NCBI GenBank assembly: GCA_044239745.1
Contig: JBIIAV010000001.1
Span: 18,884 to 82,883 of the forward strand
From: Rickettsiales bacterium
GTDB lineage: Bacteria; Pseudomonadota; Alphaproteobacteria; Rickettsiales; UBA3002
DNA length: 64,000 bases
Direction of reading: 5' to 3'
Positions within the stretch are counted from its first letter, which is position 1; every line of letters begins with the position of its first letter. This document shows, piece after piece, positions 10,146 to 61,595 of the stretch. The notes under the pieces are model-generated. The model ran no database searches and had not been told where the DNA came from. It worked only from the letters and a program-made list of their open reading frames with translations. The position numbers and the translations under genes were made by a program.

Positions 10146-10151
10146 ATGCGG

Positions 10152-11093: not shown

Positions 11094-11160
11094 GGCTGCT
11101 CCGCACTTGCGAATTGTATGAACACCACTATGTTGCAGTCTTCACAACTGAGTCAAGCAT

Positions 11161-11445
11161 ATGCTCACGCAAACCGACCTGAACCGACCATTACCGCGCG
11201 AGCTGTGGCTCAAGCGCCTGACCTACCGCAGCTGGCACCGCGGCTGTAAGGAGACCGACCTCGTTTTGGGTACCTATTGCGCCACGCATATCGACACGCT
11301 CGACGAGGCGGCGCTCGCCGTATTCGAAGCGTTCTTGGACGAGGACGACGCCGAGATATGGAGCTGGCTGACCGAGAAGACTCCCTGCCCGCACGCCCAT
11401 TACCAACCCCTGCTATCGGCGCTGCGCTCCCAGAAAATCAACTAA
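11161..11445 (+). CDS. sdhE: FAD assembly factor SdhE (SdhAF2/DUF339)
   Basis: 94 aa with the RLTYRSWHRGCKETDLVLG motif. It sits immediately upstream of mfd and divergent from the recG operon. Confidence 0.85.
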   Translation: MLTQTDLNRPLPRELWLKRLTYRSWHRGCKETDLVLGTYCATHIDTLDEAALAVFEAFLDEDDAEIWSWLTEKTPCPHAHYQPLLSALRSQKIN

Positions 11446-19894: not shown

Positions 19895-21181
19895 TTAGCT
19901 ATGATTTTTGAGCACATCCCCCGCTAGGAAAAGCGAGCCCGCGATCAAGAGTGTTCCAGCTGTGTTGTTACCGCATCGGTCGGCGAATGCGGACAGCGTT
20001 TCAACATACTCGGCGTTTTCAATGCCGGCAGCGCGGGCACATTGCGCCAGCGTCGCGGGGTCGTAGGCATCCTGCTGCGCGATGGGTACCCCGACGAACG
20101 CGGATAGATAGGGCGCCAAGGGTTGCAAGAACGCCTGCGCGTCCTTGCGGCGCATCATGCCGCACAGTAACGTCACCGGCGCGCGCTGTTGCGACAGCCA
20201 ATCGGCAAGCACCCGCGCGGCGCTTGGGTTGTGCCCACCATCGAGCATGACATCGCCGCGTTGCCCCCATGCCTCAACAAGCGGGCCATACTTCAGTTGC
20301 TGCAAGCGCGCCGGCCAGCGTGCGGATCGCACGCCGTTGCGCATCGCCTCTTCGCTAACCGGCAACGATGGCAAAAGTGCCCGTACCACTACCGAGGCCA
20401 GCGCTGCATTATGCTGTTGGTGCGAACCGGCGAGCGCCGGTAGCGGCAATTCCCAGCGGTCGCTCGCCTGCGTCACGCTCAAGGCTCCATCCGCCACCGC
20501 GTACGACCACTCACGGCCATGCGCTGTGCATTGCGTGTGCCGTTCATGCGCAACGGCATCGAGCACCGCAAGTGCATCGGCAGGCTGTTTGCCGACGATG
20601 CATGGGCGCGCATGCTTGATGATGCCAGCTTTCTCGCCGGCGATCTTTGCGATGGTGCCGCCGAGGAATTCCATATGGTCGTAATCGATCGGGGTGATGA
20701 TGGTGGCAAGCGGTGCGGCGATAACATTCGTCGCATCGAGTCTTCCGCCCATGCCGGTCTCTAGCAGCAGCACATCCGCCGCTGTGTTGGCGAAGGCAAG
20801 GAATGCCAGCGCCGTCGTCGCTTCGAAGAAGGTGACGGGGATTTTTTGCGCGGGGGCATGCACCCGCTGCAGGTGCTGCCATAGCGTGGCGTCGTCGATA
20901 TCGTTTCCGGCGAGGGTGATACGCTCGTTGAAGTGCACCAAATGCGGCGAGGTATAGCGATGCACGCGATATCCCGCTTCGGTATAGATGGCCTGCAGGA
21001 AGGCAAGCGTCGAACCTTTGCCGTTCGTTCCCGCCGCATGGATGACCGATGGCAATTGCGTGTGCGGGTTTCCAAGCGCTTCGAGCAATTGCATCATGCG
21101 CTCGAGCGACAGGTCGATCCCTGGTAACGAAGGGTGGTTCAACTCCTCGAGCAACCGCGCGATATCAGGGTTCAGGTGCAT
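19895..21181 (-). CDS. folC: Bifunctional folylpolyglutamate synthase / dihydrofolate synthase
   Basis: Mur-ligase-type P-loop (AGTNGKGST). I take the start at ATG 21181 (MHLNPDIARLLEEL), which overlaps the folP stop by 10 nt; the track extension to 21349 lies out of frame inside folP. Confidence 0.9.
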   Translation of the reverse strand: MHLNPDIARLLEELNHPSLPGIDLSLERMMQLLEALGNPHTQLPSVIHAAGTNGKGSTLAFLQAIYTEAGYRVHRYTSPHLVHFNERITLAGNDIDDATLWQHLQRVHAPAQKIPVTFFEATTALAFLAFANTAADVLLLETGMGGRLDATNVIAAPLATIITPIDYDHMEFLGGTIAKIAGEKAGIIKHARPCIVGKQPADALAVLDAVAHERHTQCTAHGREWSYAVADGALSVTQASDRWELPLPALAGSHQQHNAALASVVVRALLPSLPVSEEAMRNGVRSARWPARLQQLKYGPLVEAWGQRGDVMLDGGHNPSAARVLADWLSQQRAPVTLLCGMMRRKDAQAFLQPLAPYLSAFVGVPIAQQDAYDPATLAQCARAAGIENAEYVETLSAFADRCGNNTAGTLLIAGSLFLAGDVLKNHS

Positions 21182-21960
21182 ATCTTCTCGAAAAGCGCGG
21201 TATGACGCGCCACCGCGTGCACACGCACATAGTCGATGCCACTGGCCGCCAATTGCGCCGACCATGCAAGCGTCAGATCGTCGCGCTGCGCACTTGCGGC
21301 ATCGGTGAATAAGGTGAGGAATGATTTTCGTGAATGGCCGAACAGCCACCTTCCGCCGCTTTGCTTCAAGGCCGCCGCTTCGGTCATCAGCTTCAACGAT
21401 TGCATCGCCGTTTTACCGAAGCCGATGCCGGCATCATAGATGAGGCGTTCCGGCGCGATGCCACGCGATGCCGCCTGCGTCGTGATATCGCGTTTCCAAT
21501 CCAATAGCGTGCGCACCACGTCGCAATCATGTGGCAAGGTCGTGTTTGGGTCGGCGGGGAGGCTGAGTGCATGCATCACCACCACGTCGCAATCATGCTC
21601 GGCCAATATCTCGGCCATGGCGTGATCCCTCAGGCCGCCGACATCGTTGATGATATCCACCCCCAGCGCCAATGCGCGGCCGGCGGTTTGGGCGTAGCGC
21701 GTATCGACACTCAGGCGCACAGATTCTCGCCAATCGCAGCGATGTAGTGCCGTGAGCACCGGCTGAAGGCGCTGCCATTCGGCTTCGGCCGTAAGCGGGG
21801 CTGCATGCGGGCGGGTGGATTCCGCACCGATATCCACGATATCCGCACCCGCTTTCATTACATCATGGGCATGGGCGAATGCATATTCGGCCAGCTTTCC
21901 ATCACCGGAGAATGAATCCGGCGTGACATTCACCACCCCCATCAAGGCTGGGCGCTTCAT
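21172..21960 (-). CDS. folP: Dihydropteroate synthase
   Basis: The start is at ATG 21960 (MKRPALMGVVNVTPDSFSGDG, the classic DHPS N-terminus) with an ATGA overlap to the folK stop. Also carries DIINDVGG and GIGFGK motifs. Confidence 0.93.
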   Translation of the reverse strand: MKRPALMGVVNVTPDSFSGDGKLAEYAFAHAHDVMKAGADIVDIGAESTRPHAAPLTAEAEWQRLQPVLTALHRCDWRESVRLSVDTRYAQTAGRALALGVDIINDVGGLRDHAMAEILAEHDCDVVVMHALSLPADPNTTLPHDCDVVRTLLDWKRDITTQAASRGIAPERLIYDAGIGFGKTAMQSLKLMTEAAALKQSGGRWLFGHSRKSFLTLFTDAASAQRDDLTLAWSAQLAASGIDYVRVHAVARHTALFEKICT

Positions 21961-22424
21961 GATGGCAACGCCGCTAACAGCTCCCGCGCTGTTTTCCGGT
22001 ACACAGGATGCGTCCATTCGGGGGCGATCTCGACCAACGGCTCCAGCACGAAACGCCGGCTGTCCATTTGCGGGTGCGGCAGCGTCAGCGTCTCCTCCAC
22101 CACCACGCGGTCGTCGTAGGCGATGATATCGATATCGATCTCGCGCGGGGCCCAGCGCGCCTCGGGGTTGCGCCCCAACTCCGCCTCGATATGCTTGATG
22201 CAGGCGAGCAGGTCGAGGGGCTGCAAATGCGTGCGCACCGCGATCACCTGATTGAGGTACGGTATATTCCACGATGCCGGCGCGCCTTCAGGCATCAAGG
22301 CCAGCGTTTCGTAGATGGAGGAAGTGTGCGTCACCTCGACATCGAAGGCGGCAAGCACACTGCGCGCTTGAGCTAGATACATCTCGCGGTTGCCAAGGTT
22401 ACTGCCCAACGCAAGGAATATCAT
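21957..22424 (-). CDS. folK: 2-amino-4-hydroxy-6-hydroxymethyldihydropteridine diphosphokinase (HPPK)
   Basis: 155 aa. Carries MIFLALGSNLGNR, WAPREIDIDII and TLPHPQMDSRRFVLEPL motifs. Confidence 0.92.
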   Translation of the reverse strand: MIFLALGSNLGNREMYLAQARSVLAAFDVEVTHTSSIYETLALMPEGAPASWNIPYLNQVIAVRTHLQPLDLLACIKHIEAELGRNPEARWAPREIDIDIIAYDDRVVVEETLTLPHPQMDSRRFVLEPLVEIAPEWTHPVYRKTARELLAALPS

Positions 22425-22431
22425 GCCTGCC

Positions 22432-22842
22432 TCAGTCGAAGGTCGCGACGGTCGATCCCGCCGGAAGGTCGCAATGGGTGAAGCAGGCGCCGCCGGTCAA
22501 TCCGGGCACCGGTGCCGCCACCTTGTTGAGGCGCAACCACAGCTTGATATGCGAACCGCCGCGCGAATCCAGCTCGTGGCGCAAGTGGCGGTGCAGCTCC
22601 GCGCCCATGAATTCCACCAGCTTGAACTCGCGCGAGGCGATGAAATCGCTCAGCAGCTTGCATAGCTGGCCGTAATCGAAGAAGTCGGCCTCATCATCGA
22701 GCGCGCAGGAGGGGCTTTCCGGAAAATAGAGGCGGAAGCACACCTCGATCGGCTGGGGCTTGGCGCGCTCGCCGTTATAAAAGCCGATATGCGCCGGCAC
22801 CTGCAGGCTATTGACCGATAACATATGGGCGTAATGGGGCAT
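22432..22842 (-). CDS. folB: Dihydroneopterin aldolase family protein
   Basis: 136 aa that align to the DHNA pattern with the catalytic positions kept (GERA Glu, DYG Tyr, LVEF Glu, LNKVAAPVPG Lys). First gene of the folB-folK-folP-folC run. Confidence 0.75.
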   Translation of the reverse strand: MPHYAHMLSVNSLQVPAHIGFYNGERAKPQPIEVCFRLYFPESPSCALDDEADFFDYGQLCKLLSDFIASREFKLVEFMGAELHRHLRHELDSRGGSHIKLWLRLNKVAAPVPGLTGGACFTHCDLPAGSTVATFD

Positions 22843-22896
22843 GGCGATCCTCTAAAAACTAGTGTCATGGCCGAAAATTCAGGCTAAAGCAAGCGG

Positions 22897-23760
22897 ATGA
22901 ATAAAAAAATGACCTGCATCAACGGAAGCTTCTTTCCCAGCGCCGAAGCACGCATTCCCGTGACGGATCGCGGCTTTCGCTTCGGCGATGGCGTATTCGA
23001 GACCATCGCCGTGGTCGGGGGCGTCGCCTATCAATGGGAATTCCACCGTGAGCGCTGCTTACAGGGCTTGCGCGCCCTGCGTATCACCCCGCCCACCTTC
23101 GATTGGCCAACGATGCTTGCGCAATGCCTGACCCAGAACCACGCGAGCGATGGATTCCTGCGCATCGCCATATCGCGCGGCTGCGGCAGCCAAGGCTACA
23201 TGCCCGATTCAGGTATCGCTGCTACATGGGTCATCGAACATCTCGATGCCATGCCACCAACCCTCGACCCCATCACGCTTTACCGCAGCACGATCGAACG
23301 CCCGTCGCTTGCGGCATTGCCGGTCAACCACAAGCTGGCGCAAGGGGTCGGCAGCACACTAGCGCTGCTCGAAGCACGCGACCATGGCTGCCACGAAGCC
23401 TTGATGCTGAATGCAAATGGCCATGTGTGCGAGGCGGCAAGCGCTAATATCTTCTGGATCCGCGGCCACCAGCTTTATACCCCCGCATTGTCGACTGGCT
23501 GCGTCAACGGCAGCACCCGCGCCGCCATCATGCGCCTTGCCCCATGTATTGAAGCGACCGCAACGCTCGAGGAATTTTGCACCGCAGAGGCGGTGTTCCT
23601 CAGCAATGTGCGTCTGGGTGTGGCGGCGATGTCGTCGCTTCTGCCGAATGACGTTCATTTCTCGACCACGCACCCACAACTTTTGGAAATCGCTTCACGG
23701 CTGAAGGAAGATCGCGCCGCTTACACCAGCCAGCAGCGCAGCGCATGGGCAGCGGCATGA
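22897..23760 (+). CDS. pabC: Aminodeoxychorismate lyase (class IV aminotransferase fold)
   Basis: 287 aa with a fold-type IV PLP enzyme N-terminus (DRGFRFGDGVFETI). Its stop overlaps the pabB start (ATGA at 23757-23760). It is divergent from the fol operon. Confidence 0.72.
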   Translation: MNKKMTCINGSFFPSAEARIPVTDRGFRFGDGVFETIAVVGGVAYQWEFHRERCLQGLRALRITPPTFDWPTMLAQCLTQNHASDGFLRIAISRGCGSQGYMPDSGIAATWVIEHLDAMPPTLDPITLYRSTIERPSLAALPVNHKLAQGVGSTLALLEARDHGCHEALMLNANGHVCEAASANIFWIRGHQLYTPALSTGCVNGSTRAAIMRLAPCIEATATLEEFCTAEAVFLSNVRLGVAAMSSLLPNDVHFSTTHPQLLEIASRLKEDRAAYTSQQRSAWAAA

Positions 23761-25046
23761 GCGATTGGAAATATGTCCGTCGCCTGCCATGGCGCGACCC
23801 GCTCGCCTTTTCGCAGCCCTTCGCGAACGGCGATATGGCATTGCTTTATTCCGGCATGACCGAAGCCTTCACCGGCAGCACCAGCTATCTTTTCGTCGAA
23901 GCCATCGAAGCGCGCAGCGGCAGCGATTGGCGTAACCTGCCGGCCCTCGCCCCTACTTGCGATATCCCGTTACCGGTCTGGGTCGGCTATCTGGGATATG
24001 GCATGCGCGACGATGACTTGCGCAGCAGCTCAAGCCCGATCGACCTGCCGGATTTCCAGCTCGTGCGCTACGCCCATCTCTTTTGTTTCGATCATGAAGC
24101 GCAGCATATCGATGTCTATGCCCACCCTGCGCATGCGCCACTGGATATCGACAAATCGTCGTCAACCGCATCGCCAGCCGCACTTTCACGCATCGCGCAA
24201 CTTTCTTCCAACTTCAGCCGCTCGGATTACGGCGCGCTCGTCGAGCAGACGGTAGCGCGCATCCATGCCGGCGATTTTTACCAAGCCAATATCACCCGCA
24301 AATTCTTCGGCCAATTCGAGAGTGCGCCCGATAGCTGGCAGCTATTCACGCGGCTGACCGCTGCAAGCCCCGCCCCTTACAGCGCCTATATCCGCCATGG
24401 CGGGCTTGCTATCGTTTCCTCCAGCCCCGAATGTTTTCTCACCCTGCAGGCGGATGGGACGCTCATCACCCGCCCGATCAAAGGCTCTGCTCGGCGTAGC
24501 GACGATGCCGCCGAGGACACGGCCATAAAGGAACAGCTAAGAACCAGCACCAAGAACCATGCCGAGAATCTGATGATCGTTGACCTGATGCGCAACGATC
24601 TCGCCCGTGTCAGCGAAACCGGCAGCGTTGCGGTCGTCGAGCAATCCGTGCTTTATTCCTATCGCACCATTCACCACCTCATTTCCACCATTCGCGCGCG
24701 CAAAAAGCCGGAAATAACGGCCTACGAAGCGGTGCGCGCCTGTTTCCCCGCCGGATCGATGACCGGCGCACCGAAAATTGCCGCCATGCACTGGTGTACC
24801 CCCCGCGAAGGTCTCGAGCGCGGCGTCTATAGCGGCGTCATCGGTTGGTTCGGGCATGGCCAGCGCTGCGATCTCTCGGTCGTCATCCGCACCTTGATCG
24901 TGGCGGGCGATCGCTTCGAGTTCCAAGTCGGCGGCGGCATCGTCGCGGATTCCACGGCCGACGATGAATGGCGCGAGACCCTGACCAAGGCGCGCGGCAT
25001 CCTATCCGCCCTTGGGTTGGACGAAACCGATATCGCTAACATTTGA
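23757..25046 (+). CDS. pabB: Aminodeoxychorismate synthase component I
   Basis: Chorismate-binding enzyme motifs SSSPECFL, TRPIKGSARR, GSMTGAPK and GVYSGVIGW. The start is at ATG 23757 (MSDWKY). No glutamine amidotransferase (pabA) is adjacent. Confidence 0.82.
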   Translation: MSDWKYVRRLPWRDPLAFSQPFANGDMALLYSGMTEAFTGSTSYLFVEAIEARSGSDWRNLPALAPTCDIPLPVWVGYLGYGMRDDDLRSSSSPIDLPDFQLVRYAHLFCFDHEAQHIDVYAHPAHAPLDIDKSSSTASPAALSRIAQLSSNFSRSDYGALVEQTVARIHAGDFYQANITRKFFGQFESAPDSWQLFTRLTAASPAPYSAYIRHGGLAIVSSSPECFLTLQADGTLITRPIKGSARRSDDAAEDTAIKEQLRTSTKNHAENLMIVDLMRNDLARVSETGSVAVVEQSVLYSYRTIHHLISTIRARKKPEITAYEAVRACFPAGSMTGAPKIAAMHWCTPREGLERGVYSGVIGWFGHGQRCDLSVVIRTLIVAGDRFEFQVGGGIVADSTADDEWRETLTKARGILSALGLDETDIANI

Positions 25047-42098: not shown

Positions 42099-42754
42099 AA
42101 CTGGCTCTCCAAAACGTGGATGGCGGTAGCCTCCTTCCACGAAGTCACTCGTGGCTGAAAGACGATATGCATATCGGCAATGAACGGCGCAAGGCCGGCT
42201 TGCGCTTCTTGCCACGCGACACTACTTTCCGCGCTTTCGTTCATCACCAGCGCACGCACACGAATGCCACGCGCGCGCACCACCGATAGCGCCGTCAACG
42301 TATGGCTGATCGTGCCGAGGTAACTGCCGACGACCAGAATGACCGGCAGGCCGAGCGCCACCATCCAATCCAAGGTCGTGTCGCGGTCGTTCAGCGGCAC
42401 CATCACGCCGCCGACGCCTTCCACCAGCGTTCGCGGCGTATGCCGTATCTGTTCGTTCGTCCAATCGGTCAGGCTTCCCATATCCAGCGTTTTTTGTTCC
42501 AGCGCTGCCGCACGATGGGGCGACAACGGCGCAGCAAAGCGCCACGGCGAAATTTTCGCCACCTCACCTGTCATACCGCTAGCCACGATGATCTGTGCCG
42601 TGTCGCTGGTGGCATCCGCCGCATCCCAGCCCGAAATTACAGGCTTCAATCCGCGCATCACGGCACCGCGTTGGCGCGCCGCATGCAGCAAGGCACAGGT
42701 GGTGAATGTTTTACCCACACCCGTGCCGGTCGCTGCGATGAAATAGGCTGTCAT
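42095..42754 (-). CDS. bioD: Dethiobiotin synthase
   Basis: 219 aa with the N-terminal P-loop FIAATGTGVGKT. It has an ATGA overlap with the bioC stop. Confidence 0.9.
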   Translation of the reverse strand: MTAYFIAATGTGVGKTFTTCALLHAARQRGAVMRGLKPVISGWDAADATSDTAQIIVASGMTGEVAKISPWRFAAPLSPHRAAALEQKTLDMGSLTDWTNEQIRHTPRTLVEGVGGVMVPLNDRDTTLDWMVALGLPVILVVGSYLGTISHTLTALSVVRARGIRVRALVMNESAESSVAWQEAQAGLAPFIADMHIVFQPRVTSWKEATAIHVLESQL

Positions 42755-43524
42755 GCCGGTTTATGGACCACAAAAAAATGATGCTCCCACGTCGCGGGGA
42801 TGCCTTGGGCAGTGCGCTTGGCCTCGTAAGCGCGCAGCATCACTGCCCAGCGTTTCGGGGCAATATGCCGGCGCGAATTCTTGAAATTATTGCCAGCACC
42901 GATGCCGCGCATCGAATCAAGCAATGCCATCACGTTGGGGTAATGCTCCGTCACCAACCGCTGCTGCGCGAAGCTGATGGTGAAGCCGCTGTCGCGCCAC
43001 GCCTGCTTCGACGCCTCGAATCCGCGCATGGGCAACAAGCCCAGCGGTAGCTCCGCAGCCTGCGCTGCCGCGCGCAGCTCGCACAGGCTTTGGGTGCCAA
43101 GGCTTGCCACCACGGCCATGCCGCCGCTTTTCAGCACCCGCGCCAGCTCAGCGAAGGCCTGCGTTTGATTTTCCACCCATTGATAGCATAGTGAGCTGAC
43201 CGCCGCATCGACCGCCGCATCGGCCAACGGCAGGCATGCTGCATCCGCCGTGATGGCGGTGCAGCGAGTTGCGGCAATCTCGCTCATGCCCTGCGCGATA
43301 TCGATGCCGATGATGTTCCATTGCGGGCGTGAGGCTTGCGCCATAGCCGCGAAATAGCCGGTACCACAGCCGATATCGGCAATGCGTGCGCTGGGCGCGA
43401 AGAACATGCGTGCCGCATCCAGCACACGCAGCGTTTCGGTATGCTGGAATTGCGCGCGCGCATCGTAATGCGCGGCGGCATCGCTGAAGTTACGTTGCAG
43501 ACGTTGTGTCGCCACCCGCATCAT
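42751..43524 (-). CDS. bioC: Malonyl-ACP O-methyltransferase
   Basis: 257 aa with the class I SAM-methyltransferase motif IADIGCGTGYF. It sits between the esterase gene and bioD, with ATGA overlaps on both sides. Confidence 0.82.
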   Translation of the reverse strand: MMRVATQRLQRNFSDAAAHYDARAQFQHTETLRVLDAARMFFAPSARIADIGCGTGYFAAMAQASRPQWNIIGIDIAQGMSEIAATRCTAITADAACLPLADAAVDAAVSSLCYQWVENQTQAFAELARVLKSGGMAVVASLGTQSLCELRAAAQAAELPLGLLPMRGFEASKQAWRDSGFTISFAQQRLVTEHYPNVMALLDSMRGIGAGNNFKNSRRHIAPKRWAVMLRAYEAKRTAQGIPATWEHHFFVVHKPA

Positions 43525-44207
43525 GCCACTCCGTGTAAAGCGCGGTGTTCGTGCATTTCACGGCGTAACCGTACTGCATCGTGCGCGTGCGGCGCATGGC
43601 CGACCTGCGCCCAACTGTTCAGCTGGGCACGCGGCAAGTGGCGCGCCAGATATTCGCTCTGCGCATGCGGTACGATGACATCGTTCATGCCGTGAATGAT
43701 AAGGGTTGGCGGCGCAGATGCAAGCCCCACCATGTCCAACCGGTAATGCGCCAGATCCTCCAGCCACGGCAGCCAGCGGCCGATATCCTCGACCTGCGGG
43801 TGATAGCCCAGCAGCCCCATCACCTGCTTGAAGGCACCATCCCCCTTGGCGATCAGGCCGTGAAAGCGGCTTTTGGTGCGCGCGGGGTCATGCATGTAGC
43901 TTTCCTTGAACAAGCGGTACGTCTCGGCACCCATGCCTTCGAGATCACTACCGCTGCTGACGAATTGCACCGGCGCAGCAATCACGGTGAGATGCTTGGG
44001 TGCCAAGGCACCGGCGGCAATCGCCCGTAGCGCCAATTGCCCGCCAAGCGACCATGCCACAGCGTGGCGGGGCTTTAGTTTTCTTAGCGCCTCGATTGCC
44101 GCATCGGGGCTCGCATAATCACTATAATCGAACAGCACCGCATCATCCGCCAGCGGGGCCAGCGCGTCGGTCGGTTGTGTCCAACCGCTGAGCAGTAAGG
44201 TCGTCAT
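43521..44207 (-). CDS. Pimeloyl-ACP methyl ester esterase candidate (alpha/beta hydrolase, BioG/BioH functional slot)
   Basis: 228 aa with an N-terminal LLLSGWTQPTDA, the nucleophile elbow AWSLGG and a C-terminal GHAPH. Its position between bioF and bioC, with ATGA overlaps on both sides, points to the esterase role. Confidence 0.65.
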   Translation of the reverse strand: MTTLLLSGWTQPTDALAPLADDAVLFDYSDYASPDAAIEALRKLKPRHAVAWSLGGQLALRAIAAGALAPKHLTVIAAPVQFVSSGSDLEGMGAETYRLFKESYMHDPARTKSRFHGLIAKGDGAFKQVMGLLGYHPQVEDIGRWLPWLEDLAHYRLDMVGLASAPPTLIIHGMNDVIVPHAQSEYLARHLPRAQLNSWAQVGHAPHAHDAVRLRREMHEHRALHGVA

Positions 44208-45325
44208 TGCAGGTTACGCAGCGCTTGGATCAACTGCTCCACCTGCGCGTCGGTATGTTCGGCGCTGAAGGCAAGCCGCAAGCGCGCGGTGTGCATCGGC
44301 ACCGTCGGCGGGCGAATCGCCATGGCCAGCAGCCCCTGTTGTTTCAAGGTTTCGGAAGCATTCAGCGCCGCTTCCGCCGTACCGCACATGAACGGCACAA
44401 TGGCGCTTTGCGCCATGGGCAGGCCAAGCGCCTGCGTCACGCGCTGTGCCAGTGCACGCGCACGCGCACCGCGCTGCGGCTCCGCCTGCATCACCGTGAG
44501 TGCGGCAAGCGCACTGGCGCACGAAGCCGGCGCAAGCCCTGTGGAGAACACAAAACTACGCGCGTGACTGACCAAAAAATCGATAAGGGCACGGCTTCCG
44601 ACCACATAACCGCCGTAACCGCCCACCGCTTTGCTGAGGGTGCCCATCCAGATATCCATTGCGGCGGCGGGGGGCACGATGCCAAGGCCGTGCGCATCGT
44701 CGGCCATGGTCCATGCGTCGTATTTCTCGGCCAGCGTCGCGATATCGGCCAGCGGCGCCACGTCGCCCTCCATGCTGAAAACATGGTCGGTCACGATCAG
44801 CGCGTTAGGCGATTCCTCGCGGTGCTCCTTCAGCAATGCCTCGAGATGCGCCATATCGTTATGGGCGAAGCGGATGAGGCGCGCGCCGGAAAGCTGCGCC
44901 GCATCGATGATGCAGGCATGCACCCATTTATCGGCGAAGATCACATCCCCCTTGCCCAGCAGCGCGGGAATGACCCCAAGATTGGTAAGGTAACCGCTGC
45001 CGAACACCAGCGCCGCCGGTGCGGATTTCATGGCCGCAAGCGCGGCTTCGAGCGGTGCATAATAGGGGTGGTTGCCGGTGATGAGCCGCGAAGCGCCTGC
45101 CCCAGCCCCGCCCTGCGCCAAGGCCTTCTCGCCCGCGACGACGACGGCGGGATGGTTGCGCAAGCCCAAATAATCGTTGCAGGCAAAGGAGATATAGCGC
45201 TGCCCGTCCTGCACCAGCGTGACCGCGGAATCCGCCGTCCGTGCGCTCACCCGCAAGGTGCGCCGAAGCTGCTGCCCCTCGGCACGCGCGATGGCGGCCG
45301 AACAATGTTCATCAAGATGTGCCAT
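44204..45325 (-). CDS. bioF: 8-amino-7-oxononanoate synthase
   Basis: The start is at ATG 45325 (MAHLDEH) with an AAGGA RBS. It is an alpha-oxoamine synthase PLP enzyme (SFACNDYLGL, GTLSKAVG Lys). Confidence 0.9.
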   Translation of the reverse strand: MAHLDEHCSAAIARAEGQQLRRTLRVSARTADSAVTLVQDGQRYISFACNDYLGLRNHPAVVVAGEKALAQGGAGAGASRLITGNHPYYAPLEAALAAMKSAPAALVFGSGYLTNLGVIPALLGKGDVIFADKWVHACIIDAAQLSGARLIRFAHNDMAHLEALLKEHREESPNALIVTDHVFSMEGDVAPLADIATLAEKYDAWTMADDAHGLGIVPPAAAMDIWMGTLSKAVGGYGGYVVGSRALIDFLVSHARSFVFSTGLAPASCASALAALTVMQAEPQRGARARALAQRVTQALGLPMAQSAIVPFMCGTAEAALNASETLKQQGLLAMAIRPPTVPMHTARLRLAFSAEHTDAQVEQLIQALRNLQ

Positions 45326-45388
45326 TTTTCCTTGGCAAGTCCTAGCATTCGCGGCTAAATCTCGCAACCACCAACCAACGAGCATGTT

Positions 45389-46366
45389 ATGAGCACACCC
45401 CGCCACCTATGGACCCACGACGAAGCGATGGCGCTGCACGCCCTGCCCTTGAACGAACTGCTGTTCAAAGCGGCTACCGTTCACCGCGCGCATTTCGACC
45501 CGTCGGAAGTGCAGATCTCGCAGCTTTGCTCCATCAAAACCGGTGGCTGCCCCGAGGATTGCAATTACTGCTCGCAATCCGCCCATTTCGAGACCCCCGT
45601 CAAGGCCACCAAGCTGATGGATGTGGACGCCGTGCTGGCCGATGCACGCGCCGCCAAGGCCGCCGGTGCCAGCCGTTTCTGCATGGGCGCGGCATGGCGC
45701 AACCCCAAGCCGCGGGATATGGAAAAAGTAACGACCATGATCGCGCAGGTGAAGGCCATGGGGCTCGAGACCTGCGCCACGCTGGGCATGCTCACGGCTG
45801 AACAGGCGCAGCAGCTCAAGGCGGCAGGGCTGGATTATTACAACCACAACCTCGACACTTCCGAGGAATATTACAAAGAGATCATCACCACCCGCACCTA
45901 TGCCGACCGGCTCGACACCCTTGCCAACGTGCGCGATGCAGGCATGAAAACCTGCTGCGGCGGCATCCTCGGCATGGGCGAGACCGCGGCCGACCGCGTC
46001 AGTATGCTGGTCACCCTCGCCAATTTGCCCACCCACCCCGAATCGGTGCCCATGAACCTGCTGATTCCGGCGGACGGCACGCCGCTGGCCGGCAACCCGC
46101 GCATCGATGCGATCGATTTCGTCCGCAGCGTCGCCGTCGCCCGCATCCTGATGCCCACTTCCATGGTACGCCTTTCCGCAGGGCGCGAGGGTATGAGCGA
46201 CGAATTGCAAGCCCTGTGCTTCTTCGCGGGCGCCAATTCCATCTTCATCGGCGAAAAGCTGCTCACCGCCGCCAACCCCGATGTGGATGCGGATAAAGCC
46301 CTGTTCGCCAAGCTCGGCCTCAAGCCGATGGCACTTGTTGGCACGGAATCTGCACAAGCGGCATAA
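45389..46366 (+). CDS. bioB: Biotin synthase
   Basis: 325 aa with the radical-SAM motif [11 protein letters not shown] and a YNHNLDT motif. It is divergent from bioF across a 63-bp intergenic region. Confidence 0.95.
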
Positions 46367-46413
46367 GCAGCATAACGATACATATATCCGTCAGGGGCTT
46401 TTTATATGAGGCA

Positions 46414-46425
46414 ATTTCTAGAAAT
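46414..46425. promoter_or_regulatory. 12-bp perfect palindrome ATTTCTAGAAAT upstream of bioA (candidate operator)
   Basis: It lies in the 113-bp bioB-bioA spacer, about 55 nt upstream of the bioA ATG. A second small stem-loop CGTAGC-AGC-GCTACG (46447..46461) sits just before the bioA RBS. Confidence 0.25.
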
Positions 46426-46479
46426 GGCCGCCCGCAGAATCTTGAGCGTAGCAGCGCTACGTGAGATTCGAGGACGGGC

Positions 46480-47757
46480 ATGACACCGAAATTGACCATA
46501 GAAAAAGCCCCTCCGTGGCTTACCGAAGGGTTTGCGCATATCTGGTTGCCCTACACCCAGATGCAGACCACGGCGATGCCCGAAGCGGTCGTCGGTGCGC
46601 AGGGCTGCCGCCTGAAACTGGCGGATGGGCGCGAACTGATCGACGGTACCGCGAGTTGGTGGAGCATGTGCCACGGCTATCAGCACCCGCATATTGTCGC
46701 CGCCATCCAAAAACAAGCGGGCGCGTTAAGCCATGTCATGTTCGGCGGGTTGGCGCATGAGCCGGCCTACCGCCTTGCCACCCGCCTTTGCAAAACGGCT
46801 GGCATGGGTATGCAGCGCGCCTTCTTCGCCGAATCCGGCTCGGTCGCGGTCGAGGTCGCCCTTAAAATGGCGCTGCAATACTGGCGCAACAAGGGCGAGC
46901 CCAAACGTAATAAATTCATCTGCTTCAGCAACGGCTACCACGGCGATACCGTCGGCGCGATGAGCGTTTCGGCGCGCAGCCACTTCAACGCTGCATACGA
47001 CAGCCTTACGTTACGCAACTACACGCTCGATATCCCGACGGACGAATACAGCTTCGCCGAATTCTCTGATACCATCGCCGCCATCAAGGGTAATGTCGCC
47101 GCGCTCATCATCGAACCGCTGGTGCAGGCCGCCGGTGGGTTCCGCATCCATTCGGCCGATATCCTGTCCGAGATCCGCCGTGTCTGCCGCGAGCACGGCA
47201 TCCTCTTCATCGCGGATGAGATCGCCACCGGCTTTGCCCGCACCGGCAGCATGTTCGCCTGCCATGAAGCTTCCATCGAACCGGATATCCTCTGTGTCGG
47301 TAAGGCGCTCAGCGGTGGGCACATGCCACTTGCCGCCACCCTCACCAGCGCCGCTGTGTACGAGGCGTTCCTTGGCACCGAATACGAAAAAGCATTGATG
47401 CATGGCCCCACCTTCATGGCGCACCCCATTGCCTGCGCTGCGGCCAACGCCTCGCTCGACCTATTCGAACGCGAACCGCGCATGGCGCAAGTCGAAGCGC
47501 TGGAACAAAAATTATGGGAAGGCCTAAGACCCTTTAAACAAAAAAGCGATGTGGTGGATGTGCGCATCAAGGGCGCTATCGGCGTCATCGAGATGCAGTC
47601 GGACGCCGAGAATAACCAGCGCTTGCGTCAGGAATTCATTGCACGTGGTGTGTGGTTGCGCCCGTTCGGGCATGCGCTTTATCTCATGCCGTCGCTCACC
47701 ATCAGCGATACCGAATTGGAAACGATATTTGAAGCGATCGACGCCGTACTAGGCTAG
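46480..47757 (+). CDS. bioA: Adenosylmethionine-8-amino-7-oxononanoate aminotransferase
   Basis: 425-aa class III aminotransferase (WLPYTQM, FADEIATGFARTG, CVGKALSGG). A GAGGA RBS precedes ATG 46480. Confidence 0.93.
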   Translation: MTPKLTIEKAPPWLTEGFAHIWLPYTQMQTTAMPEAVVGAQGCRLKLADGRELIDGTASWWSMCHGYQHPHIVAAIQKQAGALSHVMFGGLAHEPAYRLATRLCKTAGMGMQRAFFAESGSVAVEVALKMALQYWRNKGEPKRNKFICFSNGYHGDTVGAMSVSARSHFNAAYDSLTLRNYTLDIPTDEYSFAEFSDTIAAIKGNVAALIIEPLVQAAGGFRIHSADILSEIRRVCREHGILFIADEIATGFARTGSMFACHEASIEPDILCVGKALSGGHMPLAATLTSAAVYEAFLGTEYEKALMHGPTFMAHPIACAAANASLDLFEREPRMAQVEALEQKLWEGLRPFKQKSDVVDVRIKGAIGVIEMQSDAENNQRLRQEFIARGVWLRPFGHALYLMPSLTISDTELETIFEAIDAVLG

Positions 47758-56574: not shown

Positions 56575-57096
56575 ATGAGAACCAAGTCCGCCGCCCTATC
56601 GCTCGCGAGCCATTCGGAACCCGCCACTGTCAGCAACGCTTCGCATGAGACCCTCATCGCGGCCGCGTCGCAGATCGTCAGTGCCTATATCGTCAACCGC
56701 CCGAACGAGGCCTTCAACCTCACCGCCCTGACGACGGATGTCTATGCCACCTTGCGCAGCTTGGTGCAAAGCGATGCAAGCCTCGGTGCAAGCAAGCCCA
56801 CCAGCGGCCAAAGCCGTAAGCCGGTGGTCGCGGTCGAAGAATCGGTGCATGCGGATTTCTTGGTGTGCTTGGAAGACGGTAAGCGCGTCAAAATGCTCAA
56901 GCGCCATCTCAAAACGGCGTATGGCATGAGCCCCGACCAATACCGTGCCCGCTGGGATCTACCTGCGACATACCCCATGGTCGCGCCGAACTATGCGAAG
57001 GTGCGCAGCCAACTCGCCAAGCAGATCGGCCTTGGCCGCCGCGCTTTGCCTACCGCTAAGCAGCGCATGAACGCCGCCGCAGCGAATTTGCGCTAG
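56575..57096 (+). CDS. mucR: MucR/Ros family transcriptional regulator
   Basis: 173 aa. The C-terminal domain FLVCLEDGKRVKMLKRHLKTAYGMSPDQYRARWDLPATYPMVAPNYAKVRSQLAKQIGLG is the Ros/MucR DNA-binding fold. Its stop shares a CTAG with the nadC stop. Confidence 0.88.
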   Translation: MRTKSAALSLASHSEPATVSNASHETLIAAASQIVSAYIVNRPNEAFNLTALTTDVYATLRSLVQSDASLGASKPTSGQSRKPVVAVEESVHADFLVCLEDGKRVKMLKRHLKTAYGMSPDQYRARWDLPATYPMVAPNYAKVRSQLAKQIGLGRRALPTAKQRMNAAAANLR

Positions 57097-57950
57097 GCCT
57101 CGTCCAGCCCGATATCGACTGCCACGGCGGAATGGGTGAGCTTGCCCACCGAGATGGAATCGACGCGCGTCTGCGCGATTGCGCGCACGGTCATCAGGTT
57201 CACGTTGCCGCTGGCTTCCGTTCGCACCACCTGCCCTGTGGCCGCTTTGTGCGCGCGCACGGTCGCCACCGCTTCGCGGAGCTGGTCGTTCTCCATATTG
57301 TCGAGCAGCACACTATCCACCTGATCCGTCGCCAACGCTTCACCTAATTGCGTCAACGTATCGCATTCCACCTGAATGGGCACACCGCTTGCGACACTCG
57401 CCTTAGCCGCTTTCACGGCCGCCGTCACGCTGCCTGCCACCGCGATATGGTTATCCTTGATCAGCACCGCATCATGAAGCCCCATGCGGTGATTCGTACC
57501 GCCGCCGCAACGCACGGCGTATTTTTGTGCCGCGCGCATGCCGAGCACGGTCTTGCGCGTATCCAAAATGGTCGCGCCGGTACCCGCCACCGCATCGACA
57601 TATGCCCGCGTCAGCGTCGCCACGCCGGAAAGCTGCTGCACAAGGTTGAGGGCCACACGCTCGCCCGCCAGCAGTGCCCGCGCACTGCCCGAAAGCGTGG
57701 CAAGCACCTCGCCCGTCGCCACACGGCCGCCCTCAGCTGCGGTGATCTTCACCGTCACCGATGGGTCGATCATGGCGAACAGTTCCGGCAGGAACACCAA
57801 CCCGCACACCACCATTTCCTGCCGCGCGCGCATGACAAAACGGGCGGGCTTATCCGCCGGAATCGTCGCATTGCCCGTGATATCGCCGGTGCCGATATCC
57901 TCGGCGATCGCGGCTTTTAATACGGCGGAAATATCGATGGGTGATTGCAT
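57093..57950 (-). CDS. nadC: Nicotinate-nucleotide diphosphorylase (carboxylating)
   Basis: 285 aa of the QPRTase family (ILDTRKTVLGMRAAQKYAVRCGGGTNHRMGLHDAVLIKDNH). Confidence 0.93.
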   Translation of the reverse strand: MQSPIDISAVLKAAIAEDIGTGDITGNATIPADKPARFVMRARQEMVVCGLVFLPELFAMIDPSVTVKITAAEGGRVATGEVLATLSGSARALLAGERVALNLVQQLSGVATLTRAYVDAVAGTGATILDTRKTVLGMRAAQKYAVRCGGGTNHRMGLHDAVLIKDNHIAVAGSVTAAVKAAKASVASGVPIQVECDTLTQLGEALATDQVDSVLLDNMENDQLREAVATVRAHKAATGQVVRTEASGNVNLMTVRAIAQTRVDSISVGKLTHSAVAVDIGLDEA

Positions 57951-58033
57951 GAAGCCGTTTCTCTCATTATCTAAGGTTCTGGATTGCCACGTCGCTGCGT
58001 TGCCCGCAACGACGAATTGCCGTGAGAAATGAA

Positions 58034-59812
58034 ATGACTGCCTACCCCATCACCCATCACAGGCTCGACGTCGCCATCATCGGCGCCGGTGGCGCAGGCT
58101 TGCGCGCCGCCATCGCCGCCAGCGAGGGCGATTTACGCGTCGGCGTCATCAGCAAGGTCGACCCGCGCCGCAGCCACACCATGGCGGCGCAAGGCGGCAT
58201 CAACGCCGCGCTTGGCACCCGCGGGCCGGACGACTGGCGTTGGCACATGTACGACACCGTGCGCGGCTCCGACTGGCTCGGCGATCAGGACGCGATCGCG
58301 CGGCTATGCGAGCAGGCACCGCGCGCCATCAACGAGCTGGCTGATTGGGGCGTGCCCTTCACGCGCGACGATAAAGGCCAGATCTATCAGCGCCCCTACG
58401 GCGGCCAGACCATCGAGTATGGCGGCGACCCTGCCTTCCGTGCCGCCGCCGCCGAGGACCGCACCGGCCAAGCCATCATGCAGGTCATGCTTCGCCGCGC
58501 TATGGGTCGCGCCATCACGTTTTATTCCGAATTCTTCGCGCTCGATCTATTGATGAGCGCGGATGGCGCCTGCACCGGCGTGCTGTGCCTCGAGCTTGCC
58601 ACCGGTGCGCTGCATGCGTTCCATGCGCCGCTTACCATCATCGCCACCGGCGGCTACGGTCAGGTCTATGCCTCCACCACCGCCGCCAATCTTTGCACCG
58701 GCGACGGCAACGCCATGGTGCTGCGCGCCGGCCTGCCGCTTCAGGATATGGAGTTCGTGCAATTCCACCCGACGGGGCTTCATGGTTCGGGCATCCTCAT
58801 CACCGAGGGTGCGCGCGGTGAAGGTGGCTATTTGCGCAATGCACTGGGCGAGCGTTTCCTCACCCACTATGCCCCAAGCAGCATGGAGCTGGCCAGCCGC
58901 GACGTCATCGCCCGCGCGATCGTGCAGGAGATGCGCGCCGGCCGCGGTGCGGGGAAACACAGCGATCATGTCTGGCTAGACCTCACGCATCTGAGCGCGG
59001 ATGTTTTCACTACCAAGCTGCCGTACATCACCTCGCTGTGCGAGACGCTGATGCGGCTTGACCCACGCACCACCATGATTCCCGTCGTGCCCACCGTGCA
59101 TTATTCCATGGGCGGTATTCCCGCCAATGTGCAAAGCCAAGTGCTGCGCATCGCAAGCGATGGCAGCGAATCCACCGTCACAGGCCTCATGGCCATCGGC
59201 GAAGCAGCGAACAATTCCTGCCACGGCGCCAACCGCTTGGGCTGCAACTCGTTGCTCGATCTCGTCGTCTTCGGTAAGGACGCGGGCGATTGGGCGGCGA
59301 CCAACATTAAAGCAGCATCAACCAGTCCAAACACACACAGTGTGTCGCTCGATGCTGCCCTCGCGCGGCTCGATGCCATGCGTCATGCGCCCGTGCGCAG
59401 CAGCGCACGCGATATCCGTCGGCAATTGCAATCCATCATGACACGCTGCGCCCCCATCTATCGCAACGGGGCAGAATTAACGCAAGGCTATGAGGCGCTC
59501 GAGGCGCTGGCTCGCGAGCCGCTGGGCACCGCCGATGCCGATCTGGCATGGAATGTCGACCTCGTCGCCGCACTCGAGACCGATAATTTGCTCGCCCAAG
59601 GCCGCGCCACCATGCTGGCCGCGCTCAAGCGCACCGAGTCACGCGGCGCCCACGCGCGCGAAGATTACCCAACGCGTGATGATGCGAACTGGCTGAAACA
59701 TTCGCTCGTTTGGGTCGATGGTGCGCACGCGCCGCGCCATGCCACCCGCGCGGTCCATCTCACCGCGGGGATGGATGAACCGAGCTTCGCGCCGGAGGTT
59801 CGGGCGTATTAA
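58034..59812 (+). CDS. SdhA/FrdA-type flavoprotein (succinate dehydrogenase flavoprotein-like) located where nadB would be expected
   Basis: About 592 aa from ATG 58034 (GTG 58022 is also possible). It is collinear with SdhA: [27 protein letters not shown] (covalent-FAD His), [66 protein letters not shown] and the C-terminus FAPEVRAY. No sdhB/C/D is adjacent. Confidence 0.85.
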
Positions 59813-59866
59813 AAACGCACGAGTATAACTACATTAAGATTTGCCGGTAAGTATCTGGTAAAAATA

Positions 59867-59890
59867 AAAAATGTTTCACGTGAAACATTT
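59867..59890. terminator. 24-bp perfect palindrome AAAATGTTTCACGTGAAACATTTT between convergent genes (probable bidirectional hairpin terminator)
   Basis: It sits in the 87-bp AT-rich gap between the SdhA-like gene (+) and the nadA-operon tail (-). On the minus-strand transcript the hairpin is followed by UUAUUUUU. The stem is AU-rich, so its strength is uncertain. Coordinates are +/-1. Confidence 0.45.
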
Positions 59891-59899
59891 TGGGGCGGC

Positions 59900-60583
59900 C
59901 TACGGCGTTTGGTAGACCAGCGCCTCGCGCAGCATGCCCACAAATAGCTGCAACGGGCGATCCATTTCATCCGGTATGGGCTGATAGATCGGGATCGTCA
60001 GGCTCATGAATTTGAAGTTGGCGTCCCGCGCTTGGCCATTGAGTTGCATACGCAAAGTGATGGATGCCGGAAAATCGACCGCGAAACGCTGCACGGGTGC
60101 ATCCGCCGCAACGGGCGGGCACACAGCACCCATCGGCACACCACAGCGCACCGTCAGCGCCTGCGCATCGAACAGCAATTGCGGCAGCACATCGGCACTC
60201 ACGAAATAATGTTCGGGCGCGCTACCATCCTTGGCGTAGAGCGCCTCGACATCATGCGGCAACTGCACGCGGTAGCGCCCCTGCCCCGCATCCACCGGCA
60301 CCAGCGTTACCTTCGCGAAGGAAACGGAATAGCTTTCATCACCCGAGACCATCGACAAAGTCGGGCGGTCGATGCCGACCATGAACCGGAACGGGAAACC
60401 CGTGGCATAGACTGCGTCCGCCTTGAAATTAACGTAAGCGTTCTTTTTGCGGAACGCCTCGTTGTGATAGGTGATACTGGCCTTCACCCGCGCCACGTCG
60501 CTGGCCATCAGGCCAAACCAAACGCCCAGCCACACAAGCGCGGCGGCAACCAGCGCCGCCATTATTTTTAACAGCTTACGCAT
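59900..60583 (-). CDS. Hypothetical membrane-anchored protein (DUF2125-like)
   Basis: The start is at ATG 60583 ([24 protein letters not shown]), overlapping the nadA stop by 8 nt; track start 60610 is TTG. An N-terminal TM followed by ...ATGFPFRF... resembles DUF2125 proteins. Confidence 0.55.
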
Positions 60584-61595
60584 GGGGCTTCGCAATCGCG
60601 GTCGAGGCAATGGCTTGCGACATCGCCAGCATGCGATCGAGGGGTTTACGTGCCGCCGCGATCAGCTCCGGCGATAATAACAGCTCCGGCGATTGGTCGC
60701 GCATGCATTGGTAGAGCTTTTCCATCGTGTTCATTTTCATGAACTCGCAATTGTTGCAATTGACGCAGGCGCCGCCATCGAACACGCCGGGCACGGGATA
60801 GAACACACTGCCAGCCGAGCGTTTTTGCATCTGGTGCAAGATACCTGCTTCCGTCAGCACGATGAATTCCTGCGCGGGGCGGCTTTCGGTGAATTTTAAC
60901 AAGCTCGAGGTCGAGCCGATATGGTGCGCATGGGTCAGCAGCGCCTCGGGGCATTCAGGGTGAGCAATGATATGCGCCTTCGGGTGCGCCACTTTCAGCT
61001 TAATGAGTTCGCGCTCGGAAAAACGCTCATGCACCATACAACTGCCATGCCACAGCAGCATATTGCGCCCTGTTTTCTTGTTCAGGTAATCACCCAAGAA
61101 ACGATCCGGCGCGAAGATGATTTTTTGATCCGCCGGCAGCGCATTCAAGATCGCCTCGGCGTTGCTGCTCGTCACGATGATGTCGGACAGCGCCTTGATT
61201 TCCGCCGAGCAATTGATGTAGGTGACCACCAGATGATCGGGATGTTTTTGCTTGAAGGCGCGGAACTGATCTGGCGGGCAGGAAATTTCCAAACTGCACC
61301 CCGCGCTTAAATCCGGCAGCAGCACTTTTTTCGATGGATTTAAAATCTTGGCGCCCTCGGCCATGAATTTCACGCCGCAAAAAACGATGACATCGGCTTT
61401 TGTCTCCGCCGCCTTGCGCGCCAGCTCCAGCGAATCGCCGATGATATCGGCGATGTCTTGAATATCATCCTCCTGATAATAATGCGCAAGGATGACCGCA
61501 TTCATCTCGCGTTTGAAGCGAAGGATCTCCTCCTCGAGATTGCTCGGTATCGCGCTTGGATGCTTGGTTTGCGTGCTGTGGGCGGCGGTTTGCAT
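60576..61595 (-). CDS. nadA: Quinolinate synthase
   Basis: 339-aa NadA fold with three repeated segments ([24 protein letters not shown]) and C-terminal Cys residues (CVNCNNC). Confidence 0.93.

Follow-up and report, generated by a model that had tools for sequence, protein, structure and literature searches.

A 64-kb stretch of DNA from a Rickettsiales bacterium (GenBank contig JBIIAV010000001.1; hereafter the window) carries, between the nicotinamide adenine dinucleotide (NAD) synthesis genes nadC and nadA, a gene for a flavoprotein built like the flavoprotein subunit of succinate dehydrogenase (SdhA). The encoded protein belongs to a large and so far unnamed family, of which we found no description in the searchable literature. 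We label this family HYC-type, a name coined here for the residues His48, Tyr122 and Cys404 on an SdhA scaffold encoded outside the sdh operon. The observation is real and reproducible over about 30 loci. On sequence considerations we lean, by a little, towards the view that the window protein is an SdhA-derived, SdhE-dependent and covalently flavinylated L-aspartate-oxidizing enzyme that replaces L-aspartate oxidase (NadB). This reading, in which an SdhA paralog was recruited, is strengthened but unproven.

Family assignment and phylogeny of the flavoprotein

The genes at the locus are arranged as follows.

57093..57950, minus strand: nadC, quinolinate phosphoribosyltransferase (TIGR00078, 291.6 bits, cut-off 198.4), divergent from the flavoprotein gene
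57951..58033, no strand: divergent nadC/flavoprotein spacer, 83 bp
58034(ATG)..59812, plus strand: HYC-type SdhA-like flavoprotein gene, 592 amino acids, proposed L-aspartate-oxidizing enzyme of quinolinate synthesis
60576..61595, minus strand: nadA, quinolinate synthase, the consumer of iminoaspartate (NF006878, 442.9 bits, cut-off 294)

An alternative in-frame GTG start of the flavoprotein reading frame lies at 58022. Because close homologs start with MTAYPITHH, we took the ATG at 58034 as the start, and residues are numbered from this Met. The initial annotation had described a reading frame of about 592 amino acids with a set of SdhA-like motifs. The translation and the homolog N-termini agree with its extent, and every motif quoted is found in the translation.

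The protein contains the Pfam domains FAD_binding_2 and Succ_DH_flav_C, the latter being the C-terminal domain of SdhA and of the fumarate reductase flavoprotein (FrdA). Among the NCBIfam models, it passed the SdhA/FrdA subfamily model TIGR01812 (679.1 bits, cut-off 567.3) and missed the SdhA equivalog model TIGR01816 (sdhA_forward) by 0.65 bit (726.7 bits, cut-off 727.35). It failed the FrdA models NF006686 (459.6 bits, cut-off 854) and TIGR01176 (441.9 bits, cut-off 932.7) and the best NadB model, TIGR00551 (347.7 bits, cut-off 452.75), and scored far under the cut-off of each of seven other NadB models. Matches to PDB sequences reached 548–619 bits for SdhA, about 336 for FrdA and about 171 for NadB. 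The model and PDB-sequence scores uphold the original view that the protein is of the SdhA rather than the NadB type. On TIGR01816, seven relatives from the clade of the window protein (the window clade) scored 739–827 bits and distant HYC representatives 431–724 bits, in comparison to 923–979 bits for authentic SdhA from Microvirga, Escherichia coli and Pelagibacter. For HYC proteins a span of 582–827 bits, around or under the cut-off, was also recorded. The distant HYC representatives tested failed the SdhA and NadB equivalog cut-offs alike. On these scores the window protein is marginal with respect to the SdhA equivalog cut-off, built like SdhA and without clean SdhA membership. It is placed like a NadB, yet fails every NadB sequence criterion (the models, Glu121 and non-covalent binding of flavin adenine dinucleotide (FAD)).

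In a neighbor-joining tree, the window clade was monophyletic in 98 of 100 bootstraps and sister to the whole of the alpha-type canonical SdhA (74 of 100); E. coli SdhA fell outside. From this sister position, the window clade is not nested in alphaproteobacterial SdhA, although the proteins of Pelagibacterales and of a Rickettsiales metagenome-assembled genome (MAG) are canonical. Phylogenetic placement had been suggested with the initial annotation, and here it sets the window clade apart from the alpha-type SdhA group. Pairwise identity within the window clade averages 66% (minimum 50%), against 74% (minimum 64%) in a canonical alpha-, beta- and gammaproteobacterial set, and a neighbor-joining tree of the wider HYC family resolved two or three groups. 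The window protein is 52–54% identical to alpha-type SdhA. Since E. coli SdhA, at 54%, is just as divergent from that type, percent identity was rejected as an argument for a new function. In the explanation that we prefer, the HYC family descends from the succinate dehydrogenase flavoprotein of Proteobacteria.

The HYC signature and the substrate site

A protein search listed, as its best 120 clusters, relatives with 56–84% identity to the window flavoprotein. All of these came from uncultured Alphaproteobacteria and none was more than 58% identical to any canonical SdhA. We widened the family by an exhaustive search through representatives clustered at 50% identity and then by a profile search from ten distant representatives. 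The search tables contain more than 200 sequence clusters of HYC proteins at 90% identity. Those with a name are mostly called "succinate dehydrogenase flavoprotein subunit". Signature counts refer to an alignment of 330 sequences, comprising 231 HYC proteins and 99 canonical proteobacterial SdhA. The codons concerned in the window are given below.

58175..58177, plus strand: His48, in the RSHT motif, the site of 8-alpha-N3-histidyl FAD in SdhA/FrdA; NadB has Ser45
58397..58399, plus strand: Tyr122, which replaces the dicarboxylate-site Phe (E. coli SdhA F119, Wolinella succinogenes FrdA F141), in the column of NadB Glu121
58442..58444, plus strand: Ala137, which replaces an invariant Thr (E. 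coli SdhA T134)
59243..59245, plus strand: Cys404, in the column of NadB Ser389 (Ser/Gly402 in SdhA/FrdA), three residues past the substrate-binding Arg401

The window protein carries His48, Tyr122, Ala137 and Cys404, and its gene lies outside an sdh operon. Position 122 is Tyr in 231/231 HYC proteins and Phe in 99/99 canonical proteins; position 137 is Ala in 219/231 and Thr in 100% of the 99; position 404 is Cys in 231/231 and Ser in 99% of the canonical set (Gly in E. coli SdhA). Conversely, canonical residues at these three positions occur in at most 1 of the 231 HYC proteins, as against 99–100% of the 99. His48 was kept in 108 of 109 HYC sequences in a separate alignment. Sorted by the residues at 48, 122 and 404, a set of 132 sequences split cleanly into H-Y-C or H-F-S/G with zero mixed forms, the SdhA of Rickettsia and Wolbachia being H-F-S. 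In a superfamily-wide sample, 14 of the 16 representatives bearing the Tyr also had the Cys. Two distant Tyr/Cys representatives, P0262 and P0312, have lost the flavinylated His (Ser and Ala, respectively) and are shorter (555 and 520 amino acids); in sequence they resemble stages on the way to a state like that of NadB, with non-covalent FAD.

The catalytic residues His245, Thr257, Glu258, Arg289, His356 and Arg401 (His242, Thr254, Glu255, Arg286, His354 and Arg399 in E. coli SdhA) are present together with His48, and are 97–100% conserved in the window clade. The initial statement that the substrate-site His/Arg residues are all present holds for this catalytic set and is incomplete for the site, where the dicarboxylate-site Phe119 has become Tyr and Ser402 has become Cys. 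In comparison to 78 canonical sequences, the window clade is fixed for a different residue at only 13–14 positions. Around 30 positions that are invariant in authentic SdhA are relaxed in HYC proteins, including Phe40 and Arg43, which flank the flavinylated His, and the helix after the AADRTG motif. The canonical SdhA set shares the Ala of this motif with FrdA and NadB of E. coli. In its place, 88% of the window clade have Glu (Glu141, 58454..58456; AAEDRTGQ), and some of the distant HYC proteins have Lys, Ser or Asn.

The relation of the signature to NadB depends on the alignment of Glu121. A first MAFFT alignment placed this residue in a gap. Pairwise BLAST against FrdA and an L-INS-i alignment both placed it in the Phe/Tyr column, matching R-E-G-G of NadB to R-x-F/Y-G-G. 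Cys404 aligns without gaps to NadB Ser389 (segment HGANRMASNS). Phe141 of W. succinogenes FrdA is one of four dicarboxylate-site residues (PMC10739449). In NadB, Glu121 replaces a neutral residue of succinate dehydrogenase and fumarate reductase and acts, in modeling, as the base that takes a proton from the substrate ammonium; Ser389 is in contact with the substrate amine and with Glu121 (PMC10249383). Two of the three HYC-defining positions hence correspond to the amino-group contacts in NadB, and the strict coupling of Tyr122 with Cys404 fits two residues that touch, which is suggestive, short of proof.

Three further measures were set aside. Loss of the C-terminal R-x-Y tail was rejected as a mark of independence from complex II, as the tail is kept in 91% of HYC proteins. 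Conservation of the SdhB interface was dropped as ambiguous because SdhE and the iron-sulfur subunit share one binding face (PMC5773532). The proximity of the window clade's 14 diagnostic substitutions to catalytic residues (5/14 within four residues, against 58/270; P = 0.16) was not used as evidence.

Gene neighborhood and the rest of the window

We compared flanks of up to ±10 kb around the flavoprotein genes. A genome scan listed mostly canonical SdhA, with only two window-clade loci among the matches listed, and further loci came from look-ups of individual gene contexts and from a metagenome scan seeded with a clade-specific fragment of 70 amino acids. In the subclade of proteins 56–100% identical to the window protein, nadC was adjacent in 21/21 assessable loci. 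It was divergent and upstream by 57–167 bp in 20 of them; in the locus L086 it lies 3.4 kb upstream, with a phosphoenolpyruvate (PEP) carboxylase gene in between. nadA lies at most 1.2 kb downstream in 16/19 subclade loci with enough flank. The initial annotation had asked whether orthologs keep the nad neighborhood, and they do, down to 56% identity. In the window itself, the coordinates confirm its description of divergence from nadC over 83 bp and convergence with the nadA operon.

None of the approximately 30 HYC loci has sdhB, sdhC or sdhD within 10 kb. By contrast, the 77 canonical sdhA loci listed (68–88% identity to Microvirga SdhA) are nearly all arranged sdhC-sdhD-sdhA-sdhB, with sdhB several kb from sdhA in L027, L045, L066 and L072. 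Distant HYC members were examined at seven loci, in genomes with a G+C content of about 40%, and their genes are orphans each time, with no sdh or nad genes within 10 kb. In one lineage the neighbors are fabF, a glycosyltransferase gene, suhB and obg; in another they are a peptidase S9 gene and a dioxygenase-like gene. One of the distant HYC genes lies about 5 kb from a malate dehydrogenase gene. Orphan status is shown for the whole HYC family and nad linkage for the 56–100% subclade only. Being unlinked is normal for nadB and unusual for sdhA. In E. coli, nadA, nadB and nadC are mutually unlinked. Two weak matches of the metagenome scan, from unrelated genomes of about 62% G+C (L103 and L104, ~9725..11266), are genuine NadB genes whose products share 48% identity with the E. 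coli protein. Neither nadA nor nadC lies within 10 kb of them, and they show that nadB frequently stands apart.

The genes around the core of nadC, flavoprotein and nadA are variable and include DctQM, Ros/MucR, pseudopilin, PEP carboxylase and thrS genes. FUR and two acyltransferase genes (olsA/olsB-like) are often kept around subclade loci, and part of the neighborhood conservation is therefore inherited synteny. In L085 (7133..9949) and L001 (7121..9940), dctQ and dctM of a tripartite ATP-independent periplasmic (TRAP) C4-dicarboxylate transporter follow nadC in the same direction and overlap. These TRAP genes and the PEP carboxylase gene of L086 link the locus to C4-dicarboxylate and oxaloacetate metabolism. 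One relative (L084) lies in a closed 1.86-Mb MAG of the Alphaproteobacteria order o__UBA998. Three short contigs (L105..L107; JGI 3300042486, 3300044624 and 3300042695) have the order TfoX_C, nadA, 227-amino-acid gene, flavoprotein gene. The 227-amino-acid protein is 97% identical to that of the window, and where the flavoprotein genes overlap they do not differ, so the same or a very close organism is present in public metagenomes. No long contig of the window organism was found in the searched collections.

The remaining features that bear on the locus are as follows.

59868..59891, no strand: AT-rich perfect palindrome of 24 nt, AAAATGTTTCACGTGAAACATTTT, between the flavoprotein gene and the nadA-operon genes that converge on it
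59900..60583, minus strand: conserved protein of unknown function, 227 amino acids, with an N-terminal transmembrane helix and an 8-nt overlap with the nadA stop codon
11161..11445, plus strand: sdhE (Sdh5/SDHAF2 family), covalent-flavinylation factor (PF03937, 83 bits; RGxxE motif RGCKE)

The flavoprotein gene is convergent with nadA and the 227-amino-acid gene, and the palindrome between them is probably a bidirectional terminator; it was not called by a terminator scan, which is G+C-biased. The nadC/flavoprotein spacers are short (51–166 bp in relatives) and align poorly, and no conserved operator was established in them. A regulatory site common to the upstream regions of nadC/flavoprotein and nadA was dropped as a candidate, given the poor spacer alignment and promoter and terminator scans at background. 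An Rfam scan gave no riboswitch and no match of any kind. The 227-amino-acid protein contains the motifs GFPF and, C-terminally, LFVGMLREA. Homologs fill the same slot in 14 further related loci, and its only 66 database relatives lie on the same contigs as HYC genes, one of them bearing DUF2125. The N-terminal charge pattern suggests that its soluble domain is periplasmic. We do not claim it as a membrane anchor or electron-accepting partner, in view of this charge pattern and the lack of a family assignment, and its membership of the system is uncertain.

Within the window, tblastn searches gave no match for SdhB, SdhC or SdhD and no second SdhA/NadB homolog, in line with the initial report that no sdhB/C/D flank the gene and that nadB is absent from the window. 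The accompanying claim that nadX is absent stands for the approximately 45 of 59 likely genes covered by Pfam scans, which gave no NadX-like protein; the remaining genes lay outside the scan. SdhE was correctly placed from the start, its identity being confirmed by the Pfam Sdh5 match (83 bits). Its gene lies directly upstream of mfd and beside recG, distant from the flavoprotein gene. Otherwise the window contains housekeeping and cofactor-synthesis genes (bamA, lpx genes, folate, biotin, dnaE, hscAB-fdx). Biotin genes (bioC/H/F/B/A-like) cluster at 42751..47757 and folate genes (folC, folK, folB, pabC and pabB-like) at 19895..25046. From its gene content the organism appears to make its own cofactors, and the biotin and folate pathways together with intact nadA and nadC imply that a source of iminoaspartate is required.

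Proposed function and comparison with known systems

We propose that in this lineage the HYC flavoprotein takes the part of NadB and would oxidize L-aspartate to iminoaspartate, which NadA would condense with dihydroxyacetone phosphate to quinolinate, to be converted to nicotinate mononucleotide by NadC. FAD would be attached covalently with the help of SdhE, and the flavoprotein would work without SdhB, SdhC or SdhD. Tyr122 and Cys404 may line the side of the pocket where Glu121 and Ser389 of NadB bind and deprotonate the alpha-amino group, and this pair in place of Glu/Ser may adapt the succinate site to aspartate. Fumarate or O2, as for NadB, or some partner are candidate electron acceptors. 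The initial annotation had left two alternatives: recruitment of an SdhA paralog for aspartate oxidation, or separation of the organism's only sdhA from sdhCDB. The nad linkage, the orphan status and the amine-site changes favor the former, short of proof. We are more tentative about extending this reading to the whole family, in which case HYC proteins may be a widespread and unrecognized class of L-aspartate oxidases or dehydrogenases with covalent FAD, dependent on SdhE and independent of SdhB, which evolved from SdhA and took over from NadB in many Alphaproteobacteria as yet uncultured.

Several points weigh against aspartate oxidation. The window protein lacks Glu121 of NadB, and Tyr is a far weaker base than Glu, which makes the proposed amine-handling chemistry speculative. 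Replacement of Phe by Tyr and of Ser by Cys is conservative and might be compatible with a working succinate dehydrogenase, and the 14 diagnostic substitutions are not enriched near catalytic residues relative to the conserved background (hypergeometric P = 0.16). The 52% identity of the window protein to alpha-type SdhA is matched by the 54% of the E. coli protein. The covalent-FAD His, the C-terminal tail and sdhE are expected of a true complex II subunit too. As the distant HYC members have no nad neighbors, the nad link is shown for one subclade only, and since the subclade region is also syntenic (FUR, olsA/olsB-like genes), this linkage could in part be inherited gene order.

A rival reading takes the protein as the ordinary and only SdhA of the organism, split from sdhC/D/B by an ancestral rearrangement, with its nad position a functionless inheritance and NadB or another source of iminoaspartate encoded elsewhere. 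We consider this unlikely. It would account for the retention of the covalent-FAD His, every catalytic residue, the R-x-Y tail and the full architecture alongside sdhE, for the TIGR01812 match and the scores of most relatives over the SdhA equivalog cut-off (739–827 bits), and for the naming of the relatives as SdhA by NCBI and JGI. E. coli SdhA is just as divergent from the alpha type, the wider region is syntenic among relatives, and sdhB is likewise several kb away from sdhA in a handful of canonical loci (L027, L045, L066 and L072). However, an ordinary SdhA would not be expected to lack sdhB within 10 kb in about 30 loci, or to belong to a family more diverse than canonical alpha-, beta- and gammaproteobacterial SdhA together and to a clade outside the alphaproteobacterial SdhA radiation. 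Three positions invariant in 99 authentic SdhA, the substrate-site Phe among them, are replaced, and Phe40 and Arg43 beside the flavinylated His are free to vary. Finally, this explanation leaves the nadA/nadC cluster without its first enzyme.

A stand-alone dicarboxylate oxidoreductase unconnected to NAD synthesis, for example a soluble fumarate reductase in the role of a redox valve or an enzyme for malate or some other C4 acid substituted at C2, strikes us as improbable. The gene is an orphan in every HYC locus examined, the distant members have no nad neighbors and one of them lies about 5 kb from malate dehydrogenase, TRAP dicarboxylate transporter genes stand beside nadC in L001 and L085, and soluble SdhA homologs in such roles are known in Osm1 and flavocytochrome c3 (PMC10238741). 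The known soluble fumarate reductases, however, bind FAD non-covalently, whereas HYC proteins keep the His and the organism has sdhE. The nad linkage (nadC 21/21, nadA 16/19) survives many local rearrangements, and the supply of NadA would be left unexplained. Very improbable is a bifunctional protein that docks on an SdhB encoded elsewhere and also oxidizes aspartate, with electrons passing to the quinone pool: although all the SdhA assembly features checked are kept (His, C-terminal tail, sdhE) next to the amine-side substitutions and the nad linkage, we know of no precedent for such a flavoprotein, no SdhB partner is evident in the window or within 10 kb of HYC loci, and residues beside the flavinylated His, which would face the iron-sulfur subunit, are no longer conserved.

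If recruitment of an SdhA paralog is correct, this would be the first L-aspartate-oxidizing enzyme of NAD synthesis on an SdhA scaffold, with a covalent, high-potential FAD and a dependence on SdhE. It would clearly exemplify the displacement of an enzyme from its own pathway by a member of the same superfamily, and SdhE would have a client outside complex II. How Tyr and Cys could replace Glu and Ser at the amine site would become a question of structure and function, as would the destination of the electrons. Reconstructions made for the tricarboxylic acid (TCA) cycle as well as for the NAD pathway in HYC-bearing lineages would be wrong, in that genome-based metabolic models of uncultured Alphaproteobacteria would, through the SdhA label, show too complete a TCA cycle and miss the initial step of NAD synthesis. 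Should the protein prove to be an ordinary SdhA, the family-wide Tyr/Ala/Cys signature and the separation from sdhB would stand unexplained in a very well studied enzyme.

Among known systems, yeast Osm1 and Shewanella flavocytochrome c3 show that SdhA homologs can work without iron-sulfur or membrane subunits (PMC10238741). They differ from the window protein in their non-covalent FAD, their far more distant sequences and the lack of a link to NAD genes. A 2023 review of complex II gives only flavocytochrome c3, Osm1 and NadB as soluble homologs (PMC10238741). In the full-text literature we found no account of the HYC signature or of nad clusters that encode an enzyme of the SdhA type, and searches on genomes without nadB and on sdhA paralogs gave nothing relevant.

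SdhA itself (E. coli, PDB 1NEK, and the alpha/mitochondrial type) has the same length and four-domain architecture as the window protein, which is 52–54% identical to the alpha type and 47% to the E. coli protein. The likeness extends to the RSHT His, the catalytic residues, the R-x-Y tail and the SdhE gene in the genome. The HYC proteins differ in forming a separate clade, in genes that never stood beside sdhB/C/D in the loci examined, in Tyr, Ala (219/231) and Cys for Phe119, Thr134 and Ser/Gly402, in the approximately 30 relaxed positions and in hidden Markov model scores 150–250 bits under those of authentic SdhA.

NadB (E. coli, PDB 1CHU/1KNR) shares with the window protein its superfamily, the catalytic residues, a stand-alone gene, the association with nadA and nadC by gene neighborhood and the polar character of both positions that contact the amine. 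The slot taken here by the flavoprotein gene is that of nadB in the nadABC clusters of Alphaproteobacteria. The two proteins are nevertheless only 32% identical, and the window protein fails all NadB models, is about 50 residues longer with its SdhA-type C-terminal domain, and has the covalent-FAD His where NadB has Ser and Tyr where NadB has the catalytic Glu121. The NadB step can also be taken over by the L-aspartate dehydrogenase NadX, which is encoded with nadA and nadC. NadX has an unrelated, NAD(P)-dependent Rossmann fold, whereas the displacement proposed here would have taken place within NadB's own superfamily.

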